A DNA stretch of 52,231 bases from a virus (Duplodnaviria > Caudoviricetes): positions 1 through 52,231 of IMG/VR virus record IMGVR_UViG_3300033182_000152. One strand, given 5' to 3'. Within the stretch, counting starts at the first letter, position 1, and every line of letters starts with the position of its first letter. Made by a program: the position numbers and the translations under genes. The notes under the pieces are model-generated. The model was not told the origin of the DNA. It searched no databases and saw only the letters and a list, made by a program, of their open reading frames with translations. Positions 19,059-33,027 of the stretch are shown here, one piece after another.

Positions 19059-19499
19059 ATGTCCGATAAAATTATCTGTAGCGGATCTATTATCTGCTCA
19101 CTACACACAAAACGTTTTCTTTTACTACAGCGTACTAGTGCTAAATCTCTTGGTCAATGGGGTTTAGTTGGCGGAACAAATAATGATGGCGAAACGCCCT
19201 GGCAAGGTCTTGAAAGAGAAATTGAAGAAGAAATAGGACATTTGCCCGAATTTAAAAAGATTATTCCTTTAGAGCTGTTTGTTTCAAACGATGAAAAATT
19301 CAACTTTCATACATACCTTTGTTTTGTAAAAGATGAATTTATTCCTACATTAAACAGCGAACACTCAGGTTATGCTTGGGTTGAATTTGGAAAATGGCCT
19401 AAACCTTTACATCAGGGGTTGCGAAATACTTTAAACAATGCTATAATAAAAACAAAGATTCTAACAGCAGTAGATGTGTTAGACTATTTGGAGGAATAA
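19059..19499 (+). CDS. NUDIX hydrolase
   Basis: Nudix box GGTNNDGETPWQGLEREIEEEIG plus LNSEHSGYAW. Start reassigned to MSDKII at 19059, after the gp15 stop. Confidence 0.9.
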   Translation: MSDKIICSGSIICSLHTKRFLLLQRTSAKSLGQWGLVGGTNNDGETPWQGLEREIEEEIGHLPEFKKIIPLELFVSNDEKFNFHTYLCFVKDEFIPTLNSEHSGYAWVEFGKWPKPLHQGLRNTLNNAIIKTKILTAVDVLDYLEE

Positions 19500-20027
19500 A
19501 TGGTAGAGTTTGGTTGGGGGACACCTATAGCCCATTACGTCTGGGACGACGAAGTAAAGTTAACTAGCACAGTTAGTGATATTATTATTAACTTTCCTAA
19601 CGGGGTTGACAACGACGAAAAACCTAGTATTGACGAATATCCAGAAATATCTTCTGCGCACAACTTCATGGACAAGTGTACAAAAGATTTTATAAAAACA
19701 CAGTTTCCAAAACAAATTGAATATTCTATTAGTTGGTGGATTCATGTTTACCGAGAAGGGTTTTACCATCAATTACACAACCACGCAGGAAGTCAATTTA
19801 CAGGCATTTTATATCTTGCTGCTCCCGAAAAAGGAGGAGAGTTAGTATTACATGATCCTAGAGGAAATGCTAATAGGGGATATAACAACAATTTGCGTGA
19901 TATGTTTAACCCTATAACAATACAGCCTAAAGCAGGAGATTTATATTTGTTTCCAAGTTTTATCTGGCATAATGTAGAACCTGTAAAAGATTTACGAATT
20001 TGTATACCGTTTGACGTTTGGTGCTAA
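19500..20027 (+). CDS. Fe(II)/2-oxoglutarate oxygenase (TIGR02466-like)
   Basis: HNH..SQFTGILYL, GGELVLHDPR, PKAGDLYLFPSFIWHNVEP and distal R. Confidence 0.85.
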   Translation: MVEFGWGTPIAHYVWDDEVKLTSTVSDIIINFPNGVDNDEKPSIDEYPEISSAHNFMDKCTKDFIKTQFPKQIEYSISWWIHVYREGFYHQLHNHAGSQFTGILYLAAPEKGGELVLHDPRGNANRGYNNNLRDMFNPITIQPKAGDLYLFPSFIWHNVEPVKDLRICIPFDVWC

Positions 20028-20028
20028 T

Positions 20029-20487
20029 ATGATTCCAAGTGTTAGTATGTCGTTGCCAGAGTTTCATAATTTGCTTCGAAGCGAAGAAGCATTTAGCATG
20101 GCCATGGCTAGTTATATTGATGTTAACGGCTTACAACATTTTATAAAAGAAAACGATTATGTATCATATCTCGGTATTGTTGATAATTTGTTACTAAGAA
20201 ATGATATAACTATAAAGTTAGAAAAATATGAAAAACTTTGTAATTATAATGACGGTACTTGTCATATTTTTTACGCAAGATCTAATTCGCCATCATTTGA
20301 CACACATACCGATCCTGTAGATTTAATATTGCAAGTAACGCACGGATCTAAAACACTTGAGATAAATCAAGCATTTATTACAGCACGTAGTGGGCATAGT
20401 TTATTTGTTCCAGCAAATACACCACACCGTGCTATTAATTTAGATGAAAGTATAATGTTATCGTGGGGACTAAATGACTGTTCATAA
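20029..20487 (+). CDS. JmjC/cupin-type Fe(II)/2OG hydroxylase
   Basis: SFDTHTDPVD...QVTHGSK (HxD..K) and FVPANTPHRA (distal His). ATG at 20029 preferred. Confidence 0.75.
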   Translation: MIPSVSMSLPEFHNLLRSEEAFSMAMASYIDVNGLQHFIKENDYVSYLGIVDNLLLRNDITIKLEKYEKLCNYNDGTCHIFYARSNSPSFDTHTDPVDLILQVTHGSKTLEINQAFITARSGHSLFVPANTPHRAINLDESIMLSWGLNDCS

Positions 20488-31212: not shown

Positions 31213-31214
31213 GT

Positions 31215-32273
31215 TTACTCCGATACTAGTGGCGCAACATTGAATAACAAATAAGGAATTCTACTTTTACGTTTGTAGAAGAATTCTACTTCTTTCCATA
31301 CATTTGATAATTCTTTGTTTGTTGCGAAGTTAAATCCGCCCTCTGCTACTTTTATAATTACTGGAATTGTTCTCGCAAACTCGTTGTATACATCTTCGTA
31401 TTCCCAATCTTTGTGATTGTTGATAATAGACATAAGTTCTGCGTTATTGCCCACTTCATCCCAGAAATCTCTTAATACATATAATGCTTGCATTCTGTTT
31501 TTATTTTGGAATGTATCTTTTACAAACTGTACTTTGTCCCAATTATTGTTATCCTGTGAATGCATCCAATCAATAATGTTATTAATAACACTAATATAAC
31601 CAATTTTAGTTTGAAGCATACTAATAACTTCAAAAATCATCTTTTCACTGTGTACAGTAAACTTTTCACGTAGATGATTTTGTGTTACAGCATTAATTTC
31701 AGCGTATGTTTCGTCTTGGTTGTATCTATCATTAATGAAGAATAGAATATCATAACCCCAATGCTTACTATTTGGAGTTCCCATATCATGCCATTCATTC
31801 TTAGCAAATACTGACTCTACACGAGCATCAACATCATCTAATGTAAAATGCGTATATGTAGCATATTCAATATCACGTTTAAAAACTAATTTTAAGAAAT
31901 CTTTTACAATTTGTTTTACATCACCGCTTGTTGTAGTTTTTAACAATGAAGCAATATACTTTGCATACACGTCGATAATATCAAACGCATCGTCAAACAA
32001 TAAAAATTCTTTATCGTTATTAGACAAATATTCCCAAGTATTAATTTCATTTGTGTTAGTAAATGTAATCATATCTGGATTAGCATTTGGATAATCTGTA
32101 AGTAGTGTATCAATATAAGACTGTTGTACTTGCGAGTGTCCTTCTGGCGCTACAAGAACTAATGATCTTGATTGATCTCCGCTCCACGGACTTTCTGCTA
32201 AAGCAGTTACCATAGAGCTAGATTTCCCTAAATATTTTTTGTTGTTTATATAATAAAAACTTTCACCTATCAT
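31215..32273 (-). CDS. Hypothetical protein of the rSAM cluster
   Basis: Start reassigned to MIGESF at 32273 (ATGA overlap with the upstream stop, SD AGGGG). Confidence 0.7.
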   Translation of the reverse strand: MIGESFYYINNKKYLGKSSSMVTALAESPWSGDQSRSLVLVAPEGHSQVQQSYIDTLLTDYPNANPDMITFTNTNEINTWEYLSNNDKEFLLFDDAFDIIDVYAKYIASLLKTTTSGDVKQIVKDFLKLVFKRDIEYATYTHFTLDDVDARVESVFAKNEWHDMGTPNSKHWGYDILFFINDRYNQDETYAEINAVTQNHLREKFTVHSEKMIFEVISMLQTKIGYISVINNIIDWMHSQDNNNWDKVQFVKDTFQNKNRMQALYVLRDFWDEVGNNAELMSIINNHKDWEYEDVYNEFARTIPVIIKVAEGGFNFATNKELSNVWKEVEFFYKRKSRIPYLLFNVAPLVSE

Positions 32274-32653
32274 CTTCTTCCCCTTGATCCATGGCAACTA
32301 TAATGGCAACTTGAATGGCAAATACGCCAATCAAACGAACTGTTTGTTAATCTTCCTTCAATAGCATTTACAGTACGTGATATACAGTTTGTTGCGAAGT
32401 TTTGTACATCAGTAGCTCTTGCTATAATATTATCACCTACGTTGTTTGGTAAATCTCCTGTACTATAAACATTACTAGGAGCGTTTACATATTCATAACG
32501 TCTATTACCGTATGCTCTTGCTTGCCCCCATCCACCAGAGTTAGCATAATAACATTGCGCATTAAAGTTAATAGTTTTATCAAAAGTACGTATTTTAGTA
32601 TAAGCACTGTTAATGTAGCGAGATTCTAATGAACCGTGACTTAAACCTGCCAT
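32270..32653 (-). CDS. Putative rSAM substrate / precursor B (C-terminal CHSSCHYSCHGSRGRR)
   Basis: 127 aa, paralogue of the adjacent ORF, with a Cys/His/Ser-repeat C-terminus at the head of the rSAM arm. Confidence 0.7.
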   Translation of the reverse strand: MAGLSHGSLESRYINSAYTKIRTFDKTINFNAQCYYANSGGWGQARAYGNRRYEYVNAPSNVYSTGDLPNNVGDNIIARATDVQNFATNCISRTVNAIEGRLTNSSFDWRICHSSCHYSCHGSRGRR

Positions 32654-33027
32654 TATCTTCTCCCTCTACTACCGTGACAACTATAGTGACAACTTGCGTG
32701 ACAAATTCTAAAATCAAAATACTGGTCAGTTAGTCGTCCTTCAATTAGATCACACGTTCTTTGAATAGCGTTTAATGCTTGATCAACTAAGTGTGTTGCG
32801 TCAATTAGTGTTGTGTTTGGGTAAACTTGGCTGTTATAGACCTGGTTACTAGCATTTACATACTCGTAACGTCTATTACCATAAGCAGTGCCTTGGTTAT
32901 ATCCGCCATAGTTTTGATTTAAGTAAACTGTTGCTGAAACATTTACTGTTTTATCAAAACCTCTTAACTGTGCTCCAGCATTACCACGAAAGTAATCTCT
33001 AGCCGAAGCTCGAGTCATATTACCCAT
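32653..33027 (-). CDS. Putative rSAM substrate / precursor A (C-terminal CHASCHYSCHGSRGRR)
   Basis: 124 aa. Shares FDKT.N, AYGNRRYEYVNA and IEGRLT..FD.RICH with B. Starts 3 nt after the fibre stop. Confidence 0.7.
   Translation of the reverse strand: MGNMTRASARDYFRGNAGAQLRGFDKTVNVSATVYLNQNYGGYNQGTAYGNRRYEYVNASNQVYNSQVYPNTTLIDATHLVDQALNAIQRTCDLIEGRLTDQYFDFRICHASCHYSCHGSRGRR

Follow-up and report, generated by a model that had tools for sequence, protein, structure and literature searches.

The complete IMG/VR virus record IMGVR_UViG_3300033182_000152, which is 52,231 bases long (the window hereafter; about 15% of the genome, by estimate), comes from a tailed phage (Caudoviricetes) whose structural proteins are closest, by tblastn, to those of giant myoviruses such as Atu_ph07, Phosso and PA5oct. 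Between positions 19059 and 33027 it carries a dense cassette of genes for radical S-adenosylmethionine (rSAM) enzymes, oxygenases and two small proteins with a repetitive Cys-His tail (T hereafter). This cassette, which might serve to modify that tail, is the subject of the present paper.

The region contains 17 open reading frames (ORFs) in two convergent arms (Table 1). The plus arm (19059-23846) encodes, in that order, a NUDIX hydrolase, a 2-oxoglutarate (2OG)-Fe oxygenase, a cupin, three rSAM enzymes and a 139-amino-acid (aa) protein, while the minus arm (33027-23731) encodes two T proteins, two proteins of 360 and 240 aa and six rSAM-type ORFs. Adjacent genes overlap by 1-28 nt or are spaced by 2-3 nt, and the minus arm begins 3 nt past the stop codon of a gene for a 4132-aa fibre-like protein. 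Where the arms converge, the 3' ends of the 139-aa gene and of the rSAM gene D overlap over 116 nt (23731-23846). The flanks hold genes for tail tube, sheath, sheath stabiliser, baseplate wedge and fibre proteins. None of the 17 ORFs matches a peptidase or transporter family (Pfam, NCBIfam), and megablast of the region against phage records returned no close DNA-level relative. An earlier note on this DNA had described 17 coupled genes in two convergent arms, embedded in a virion gene block and lacking a transporter or clear peptidase; this description holds throughout, every ORF having been recovered at the same coordinates.

Table 1. Genes of the cassette and its fibre-like neighbour, with their counterparts in phage RSL2 (amino acid identity in brackets)
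Feature	Position	Strand	Basis	RSL2 counterpart
NUDIX hydrolase	19059-19499	+	PF00293 56.8 bits (cut-off 21.1)	
2OG-Fe(II) oxygenase, accessory cassette member	19500-20027	+	PF13759 (2OG-FeII_Oxy_5) 72.6 bits (cut-off 27); phrog_81	
Cupin/JmjC-like Fe(II) oxygenase (predicted), core member, usually first in cassette	20011-20487	+	Sub-threshold Pfam matches	ORF066, cupin (32%)
rSAM-SPASM enzyme A, adjoins T gene in common layout	20474-21502	+	CxxxCxxC at residue 19; CxxCxxxxxCxxxC at residue 307	ORF067, rSAM (46%)
rSAM enzyme B, 8-Cys C-terminal domain, best conserved member	21502-22536	+	PF04055 33.4 bits	ORF075, rSAM (61%)
rSAM enzyme C, 4-Cys C-terminal cluster	22529-23446	+	PF04055 29.7 bits	ORF077, rSAM (42%)
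U139, 139-aa core member	23427-23846	+	phrog_20737, function unknown	ORF081 (30%)
rSAM-SPASM enzyme D	23731-24930	-	CxxxCxxC at residue 53; CxxCxxxxxCxxxC at residue 325	ORF072, rSAM (35%)
Five paralogous rSAM-like E enzymes	24918-26057, 26051-27145, 27129-28307, 28294-29322, 29312-30493	-	phrog_31457, function unknown	ORF071, rSAM-like (20-24%)
F, 240-aa core protein, directly after T or one gene on	30490-31212	-	Profile match	ORF070 (by profile)
w15, 360-aa protein, window-type layout only	31215-32297	-	Likely start M9 at 32273	
T, 127 aa, ending CHSSCHYSCHGSRGRR	32270-32653	-	T-family profile E 4e-31; phrog_35144, function unknown	ORF068, 186 aa, ending CHSSCHTSCHGSRGRR (tail only)
T, 124 aa, ending CHASCHYSCHGSRGRR	32653-33027	-	Tail motif	ORF068 (tail only)
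4132-aa fibre-like virion protein, linked context, directly upstream of T	33031-45429	-		

An invariant Cys-His tail

The two T proteins of the window are 49% identical and end in tails of the form CHxSCHYSCHGSRGRR, in which nine residues (C109, H110, C113, H114, C117, H118, R121, R123 and R124 of the 124-aa copy) are invariant among 19 sequences. A word-based search with one T returned only 13 relatives, the tail being short, and a profile of the 19 proteins was therefore run against 1.84 billion proteins, which brought in 786 representative clusters at E<=0.001, 504 of them at E<=1e-10. Among the best 150 of these 786 representatives, 141 have the exact end (C-H-x-[SNA])x3 followed by R-x-R-R, the remaining nine being near variants or cut ORFs, and 147 have exactly three units. 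At the fourth position of the unit, Ser makes up about 80-90% of cases and Asn or Ala the remainder; because of this tolerance, the conserved unit is on the evidence of the alignment Cys-His rather than His-x-Ser. The paralogous pair of Cys/His/Ser-tailed proteins seen by the earlier note is thus real, and the Cys-His part of its CHxS unit stands, whereas the Ser is not fixed. At the DNA level, the window holds two occurrences of the back-translated tail motif, as against none in 100 shuffles, and the two copies differ in synonymous codons, so that the constraint acts on the protein.

The rest of T is far more variable. The body, of about 100-290 residues, shares 18-28% identity between lineages and retains a helix right before the tail and one nearly invariant Arg. 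No cleavage motif is conserved ahead of the tail in the family alignment, no signal peptide is obvious by inspection of the sequence, and neither copy has an NCBIfam match at E<=0.1 or a Pfam match at E<=0.01. An AlphaFold2 (AF2) monomer model of the 124-aa copy has a predicted local distance difference test score (pLDDT) of 52.6, with a low-confidence helix over residues 111-118. A divergent tail is found on a 4.3-kb contig from an assembly of cultured Dysosmobacter segnis (L012), which carries T, F, D and B, and whose T protein (3-362) has eight CHxS/CHxN units in three groups, followed by ARGRR.

A core of four radical-SAM enzymes and a local expansion

All nine rSAM-type proteins have the CxxxCxxC motif and, in their C-terminal part, CxxCxxxxxC with one more Cys after another 16-18 residues, a pattern that the earlier note had singled out and that a motif check bears out. 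The full SPASM form, CxxCxxxxxCxxxC, is present in two of them, A and D. CxxxCxxC starts at residues 11-53, too near the N-terminus for a RiPP recognition element (RRE; RiPP, ribosomally synthesised and post-translationally modified peptide) to precede it. The Pfam Radical_SAM cut-off (PF04055, 29.5 bits) is passed by B and C, while the SPASM model TIGR04085 (cut-off 27) gives 30.0 for A, 20 for B and 14.4 for D, although D has the full motif and seven invariant C-terminal Cys. Within their families, the invariant Cys number 3+7 in A (together with a GGEP motif), 3+1+8 in B (with the SAM-binding motif NGGDP), 3+4 in C (with YGGE) and 3+7 in D (with GGE); the C-terminal Cys count is only four in C and in E. 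Judged by these features, the core enzymes A, B and D would be of the SPASM type, and the fourth, C, has a 4-Cys C-terminal cluster. B is 54-68% identical to its relatives on genome contigs, and D has a C-terminal extension of about 40 residues past the last conserved Cys of its family.

Among solved structures, the best profile match of A is ChlB (E 8.9e-9), over the N-terminal 100 positions or so only. When profiles are aligned with PDB sequences, both A (E 7e-8) and B (E 3e-6) match anaerobic sulfatase-maturating enzymes (anSME) over their full length. C matches only the N-terminal third of viperin-like enzymes, and D and E have no solved relative in PDB profile searches. PHROGs places A-D in one 'radical SAM' family and assigns no function to the families of E, T, F and U139. 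None of the enzymes reaches the cut-off of a known cofactor- or nucleotide-modification family, an outcome on which the earlier note had made its interpretation depend.

Five of the six enzymes of the minus arm are old paralogues of one accessory family, E, with 19-26% mutual identity, only weak Pfam and NCBIfam matches and nine invariant residues (C34, C38, C41, T80, D81, C304, C307, C313 and C330). The same five are present in a close relative (L093). The single E of RSL2, ORF071 (L001 14052-15437), is labelled hypothetical and lacks CxxxCxxC as annotated, its annotated start (locus 14478) excluding a motif that lies upstream in the same open frame. Since Atu_ph07 and Phosso lack E and RSL2 has one copy, the nine enzymes of the window represent a local expansion on a core of about four. 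The enzyme number that was earlier thought unusual is therefore correct as a count, with the amendment that five of the nine are copies of E.

Linkage of the tail protein and the enzymes

Among cultured phages, the cassette is carried by four lineages of jumbo phages, namely the RSL2/RSF1/FLC group, Atu_ph07, Phosso and pPa_SNUABM_DT01 (DT01 hereafter). With one T as the tblastn query, matches were confined to its last 31 residues and came from the Ralstonia/Burkholderia jumbo phages that make up the RSL2 group; the RSL2 locus is syntenic with the cassette of the window. Homologues of rSAM B occur in 15 of 50,697 phage records, all from these four lineages, and a T with its tail is present in 13 of the 13 checked, the other two being duplicates of Atu_ph07 and RSF1.

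The converse was addressed with IMG/VR, in which at least 120 contigs have the T tail motif. Of 80 viral loci selected solely for the tail DNA motif (fetched as stretches of 1.5-15 kb), 78 have at least one cassette rSAM, and the two exceptions have T at the edge of the locus. In these partial stretches the members were found as follows: F in 67, A in 60, cupin in 44, D in 41, E in 24, B in 23, 2OG oxygenase in 16, C in 14, w15 in 12 and U139 in nine. When 185,579 species genomes were scanned with rSAM B, 23 loci were recovered. T ORFs, one or two per locus, are present in 17 of them; the remaining six are short, or their contig ends inside or beside the cassette. rSAM homologues without tail proteins are thus not common, and the co-occurrence that the earlier note proposed to check is borne out in viral loci, genomes and phage records alike.

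Two layouts recur. Type I runs cupin-A-T-F-D-B-C-U139-2OG. Type II, that of the window, has T-T-w15-F-E…E-D directly after a fibre gene and a separate arm cupin-A-B-C-U139; two other loci (L093 and L095) repeat the gene content of the window. RSL2-type cassettes additionally contain, between D and B, two adjacent dihydrofolate-reductase-like genes (L001 16506-17655; L150 8864-9980) that share 31% identity and are absent from the window. Two loci binned as metagenome-assembled genomes of Methanobacteriota and Marinovum (L002 and L005) have the cassette beside giant fibre-like and baseplate-wedge-like ORFs, and look like jumbo-phage DNA binned with cellular genomes.

Salt-marsh and seawater metagenomes contain relatives with 90-99% identity. 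In three RNA libraries from salt marsh, contigs cover, at 90-99% identity, parts of T, w15, F, one E and the 3' end of the fibre gene, which is a hint of transcription, RNA libraries being able to contain DNA and the contigs being strandless; most of the plus arm has no cover, which is uninformative.

A neighbouring fibre gene

The strongest clue from genomic context, which is missing from the earlier note, is a conserved fibre gene upstream of T. In 45 of the 80 viral loci, the same-strand gene upstream of T ends in a homologue of the last 100-190 residues or so of the giant 4132-aa protein. These carrier proteins range from 355 to more than 2100 aa, and one has collagen repeats. The gap between carrier and T is 0-10 bp in type II and about 1.5 kb in type I, i.e. 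the length of cupin plus A. The shared C-terminal domain has a weak match to the intramolecular chaperone Peptidase_G2 (20.9 bits, cut-off 25). RSL2-type phages and DT01 have instead a repeat-bearing 'virion structural protein' upstream. Taken together, sequence comparison indicates that the cassette is tied to genes of the trimeric-fibre type in several settings.

As for the giant protein itself, its last 150 residues or so (33034-33480, minus strand) are a portable C-terminal domain that is found on otherwise unrelated upstream proteins (L028-L107). Residues 240-1506 hold nine tandem repeats spaced at 142-167 aa, and the only Cys of each repeat lies in a conserved C-x-R-D-x-G-[LY]-[IL]-x-D-A block; similar repeats occur in separate ORFs of two further loci (L043 and L052). 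Neither half of the protein matches a Pfam family at E<=0.001.

Copies in Bdellovibrionota chromosomes

Most cellular matches of the cassette are in Bdellovibrionota, where orthologues of rSAM B (E<=1e-60) are present in 18 of 401 sampled genomes. Three cassettes of this phylum (L006, L008 and L014) are flanked, as read by eye, by housekeeping genes (NrdR, GlyA, FabF, CarB and Prs), and one rSAM B match lies 2.2 Mb into its contig. The system is therefore not specific to phages, as it had been taken to be.

Fibre-like genes are found here as well. In locus L014, the two proteins of a pair (2723-5845) have a prepilin methylation motif at the N-terminus together with an intramolecular-chaperone domain, Peptidase_S74. 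Ten Bdellovibrionota-type loci (L014, L006, L007, L008, L009, L019 and L021-L024) have, within 10 kb, two or three relatives of this pair and/or a conserved 205-aa protein, each of the two being found in nine loci. The latter protein (of about 205 aa) is 48-63% identical between loci and has no Pfam family.

Partner and accessory proteins

F is the most frequent companion of T, which it adjoins in most loci. It is matched by a profile of 22 proteins resembling RSL2 ORF070 (E 7.9e-17), a correspondence detectable only in this way. F and T evolve fastest, with 15-27% identity as against 35-68% for A-C. The AF2 model of F is confident (pLDDT 75.9, predicted template modelling score 0.78), and it has no PDB match at E<=0.001 in Foldseek (all E>0.1); the best VIA hit has a Z of 4.9 and covers residues 1-63 only. 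No Pfam family is common to 18 members. Because no enzyme has an N-terminal recognition domain, F is a candidate T-binding partner that probably holds the substrate. Co-folding F with residues 66-124 of T gave 0.53 (best control 0.00), which falls within the weak rating (<=0.60) and which is reached by 58 of 80 solved complexes and two of 110 mismatched pairs. The three runs gave 0.01, 0.60 and 0.53, with contact agreement of at least 0% and partner pLDDT of at least 34.

The cupin scores below the Pfam cut-offs (22.6 against 27.2 for Cupin_2; 19.6 against 22 for JmjC_2), though its family keeps H85, H99, D101, K114 and H139 invariant in nine sequences. These include the HxD…H triad (H99, D101, H139) and the Lys (K114) of JmjC/cupin Fe(II)-2OG enzymes, which sustains the JmjC-like hydroxylase assignment made earlier. 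Homologues of the 2OG oxygenase are found in the RSL2, DT01 and L002/L005 cassettes, the RSL2 cassette holding two. U139, whose family alignment retains a YPAKSY.VA..YA block, has no Pfam family at E<=0.01 for the window protein or at E<=0.1 for 18 members, and no score above 0.78 in a protein-atlas search.

w15 occupies the same position in each of the loci that have it. It has no Pfam, NCBIfam or PHROG family, and a protein-atlas search yielded weak P-loop-like leads only (scores <=0.81). A relationship to RSL2 ORF069 was considered and rejected (hhalign probability 0.8%, profile search E 0.35). The NUDIX hydrolase, which had been counted among the modification genes, has no counterpart in the RSL2 cassette. 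According to the annotations under the tblastn matches, a NUDIX gene adjoins the sheath-stabiliser gene in PA5oct-type phages, and these are not among the 15 phage records with rSAM B. Therefore, NUDIX is probably part of the phage backbone and lies outside the cassette.

A proposed maturation set for T

Starting from the observed gene content, motif invariance, linkage and distribution, the reading that we favour, and which we hold to have slightly better than an even chance of being right, is that several enzymes modify the tail of T and that the product stays attached to the T protein. That T is their substrate we infer from linkage, in that T is almost never separated from A and F, and from the invariance of a tail whose units are fixed at three. 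The cassette would then be a dedicated maturation set for a protein with a variable body and an invariant 16-residue C-terminus, in which four core rSAMs (A, B, C and D) and zero to five copies of E would introduce multiple intramolecular crosslinks or oxidations into the Cys/His repeats. Thioethers at Cys and three-residue cyclophanes centred on His, alone or together, would be the likeliest products, and an oxidation of Cys or Ser like that by anSME is also plausible. Hydroxyl groups would be added by the JmjC-like cupin and the 2OG oxygenase, perhaps at Arg or His, while F would play a non-enzymatic part in holding the substrate. Matured T would most likely work with the host-contact fibre, because the cassette almost always adjoins a trimeric-fibre-type gene, be it a phage fibre or the pilin-headed Peptidase_S74 proteins of Bdellovibrionota.

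Several points weigh against this proposal, which is built from genes and their linkage: (i) seven of the nine enzymes are below the Radical_SAM cut-off or have no match, and are recognised by motifs and weak matches, (ii) the E family has GPTD where other rSAMs have GGE, (iii) co-folding of F with T scored weakly and differed between runs, so no claim of binding is based on it, (iv) the T body, which is not confidently folded as a monomer in the AF2 model, may have a leader-like role, (v) the link with fibre genes could in part reflect shared ancestry and the late-operon synteny of related jumbo phages and (vi) the stripe of Cys and His could simply bind metal, unmodified.

The last point deserves to be developed. 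The tail might coordinate Zn, Fe or an Fe-S cluster, perhaps on the axis of a trimeric protein associated with the fibre, and the rSAMs would then have another target, such as the fibre protein, a nucleotide or a small molecule. In a helix such as the one that AF2 places, with low confidence, in the tail, one face would be lined by the Cys (i, i+4 and i+8) and the His (i+1, i+5 and i+9); the unit count is nearly fixed at three; and it is the metal-ligand residues alone that are strictly kept within the unit, S, N and A being tolerated at its fourth position. Phage fibre tips are known to coordinate metal ions with His, fibre genes adjoin the cassette, and the nine one-Cys repeats of the giant neighbour could be another target for the enzymes. 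However, T adjoins A in nearly every version of the cassette and always comes with cassette rSAMs where there is sufficient sequence, plain metal sites need no four to nine dedicated rSAMs, and the invariant R-x-R-R end would be left unexplained. We therefore regard an unmodified metal site as unlikely, if less so than the other alternatives.

How the product would be used depends on whether it is released. In a classical RiPP pathway, the T body would be a long leader, and the tail would be cut off by a host or otherwise unlinked protease, the bioactive peptide being freed at lysis. In keeping with this, the putative core lies at the extreme C-terminus, behind a conserved helix, the body is poorly predicted as a fold, and RiPP maturases (DynA, DarE, PapB and others) predominate among the best NCBIfam neighbours of A. 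Yet the 17 ORFs of the window include no recognisable peptidase, exporter or immunity gene, the maps of related loci, screened just for cassette families, list only those, no conserved cleavage motif precedes the tail, the enzymes have no room for an N-terminal RRE, and the chromosomal copies in Bdellovibrionota are beside fibre-like genes, not transporters. This makes release of a peptide a rather doubtful proposition, slightly more so than a metal site. Retention of the modified tail on T, which we prefer, is suggested by two of these features, namely that the cassettes examined (by maps confined to cassette families) have no protease or exporter and that the enzymes, with no room for an N-terminal RRE, resemble the protein-modifying anSME. 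The earlier note had left the choice between a modified virion protein and a product released by lysis; given that no transporter or peptidase was found, a modified protein is the more likely of the two, and release receives less weight.

Relationship to known systems

None of the enzymes reaches the cut-off of curated NCBIfam families for HxsB/C, CXXX-repeat, anSME or cyclophane synthases. By analogy, the closest functional precedent would be the HXS system. According to the sections of the published account drawn on here, HxsB and HxsC act with HxsD to mature the HxS-repeat protein HxsA (with a +8 Da change on SHRSS), and 99.7% of HXS systems are in Pseudomonadota (PMC13128918, Nat Commun 2026). 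The likeness is that rSAMs and a small partner mature a whole repeat protein, that a repeat carries the modification and that the product remains a protein (same sections of PMC13128918). The differences are numerous. HXS has two rSAMs, the cassette four to nine; the best matches to HxsB (28.6 bits, cut-off 370) and HxsC (22.1 bits, cut-off 267.9) are remote; T has neither an NCBIfam HxsA match nor a peptidoglycan-binding domain; the T units start with Cys and are exactly three, and the tail ends in R-x-R-R; and the cassette is found in jumbo phages and Bdellovibrionota.

HXS also suggests another role for the product. Since, in the same sections, its two rSAMs act on a His-x-Ser-repeat protein that blocks phage DNA entry (PMC13128918), matured T, which has H-x-S units and a basic end, might block the entry of DNA from competing phages, providing superinfection exclusion for the phage and defence for Bdellovibrionota. 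What speaks against this is that T has no obvious signal peptide (by inspection) and no peptidoglycan-binding domain (Pfam), that HxsB and HxsC are far below their cut-offs while HxsA and HxsD are unmatched, that PADLOC gives only weak viperin-type matches, and that the genes are in a tail/fibre block, directly downstream of a same-strand fibre gene. We consider this the least probable of the readings discussed here, and a very improbable one. The PADLOC matches, being confined to the N-termini of the rSAMs, were set aside as evidence of defence.

For A and B, the nearest solved relatives over the full length are anSME (PDB 4K36-4K39). These rSAM-SPASM enzymes lack an RRE and modify a folded protein at Cys or Ser, and other SPASM enzymes make Cys thioethers. 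Scores with the anSME model TIGR03942 (cut-off 349) are 40.7 bits for A and 34.4 bits for B, and anSME works alone, on a target motif different from the T tail. Cyclophane chemistry offers a second parallel, as rSAMs can, in the sections drawn on here (PMC11499958), crosslink the C2 of His to the Cbeta of the residue two positions on. The H-x-[S/N/A] of T would fit the aromatic-X2-X3 pattern of such cyclophane synthases (HtkB and HaaB). The models for FxsB, GrrM/OscB, YhhB and AmcB give only 16.7-29.7 bits against cut-offs of 310-445, triceptide systems have short precursors and one maturase, and the Cys of the T unit has no counterpart in them. In CXXX-repeat systems, one rSAM enzyme matures a target in which every fourth residue is Cys; the match to TIGR04115 (22.6 bits, cut-off 350) covers the N-terminal 58 residues only, and no paper on the CXXX-repeat peptide system was found in the open literature.

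In another well-known case, the rSAM-SPASM enzyme QhpD makes several Cys thioethers in QhpC, the small subunit of quinohemoprotein amine dehydrogenase. The match to QhpD is 23.8 bits (cut-off 453), and QhpD is one rSAM that crosslinks Cys to Asp or Glu, residues that the T tail lacks. Related enzymes also modify MftA and PqqA, which raises the idea that the tail of T might be a sacrificial scaffold from which a redox or metal-binding compound is excised, as for mycofactocin and pyrroloquinoline quinone (PQQ). Several oxidative enzymes (rSAM-SPASM enzymes, 2OG oxygenases, cupin) are indeed gathered around a C-terminal core, and RSL2-type cassettes include the dihydrofolate-reductase pair. This would nonetheless require an excising peptidase and downstream tailoring or consumer enzymes, none of which is seen; T has 120-300 aa and an architecture conserved across the family; and the genes are linked to fibres, not to metabolic genes. 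A peptide-derived cofactor is thus quite improbable, if marginally less so than phage exclusion.

As a system, the cassette is not described in the publications that we searched (subscription journals and supplements lay outside the search), which agrees with the earlier impression of a system not previously reported. In the sections drawn on here, the genome papers of FLC6, S13 and RP12/RP31 give only the annotations 'radical SAM', 'cupin' and '2OG oxygenase'. The kind of process is already known, i.e. maturation of the tail of a ribosomal protein product by rSAMs, and what is unusual is the substrate motif, the number of enzymes, the distribution and the tie to fibres. To our knowledge, there is no precedent for four to nine different rSAMs acting on one invariant 16-residue tail, well known as rSAM maturation of peptides and proteins is.

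Implications

The cassette is common, with its 786 representative clusters of T and at least 120 viral contigs, and beyond generic 'radical SAM' and oxygenase labels its members are annotated as unknown. It is a defined set of a candidate substrate and enzymes that may hold new enzyme chemistry on a Cys-His repeat, and it might offer the first rSAM chemistry serving a phage fibre or the surface fibre of a predator. It also reveals a gene-sharing link between giant phages and Bdellovibrionota.

A bolder idea, which we put forward as unlikely though worth stating, is that the cassette is a fibre-linked host-attack module common to jumbo phages and predatory Bdellovibrionota, in which T would be an accessory or tip protein of the fibre with an rSAM-built C-terminus. 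A tricyclic or metal-holding end of T would then be needed for fibre assembly or for engaging the envelope of the host or prey. If this were true, T would be the first rSAM-matured component of a virion or of a predation apparatus, and its maturation would involve a new crosslink chemistry on Cys-His repeats.

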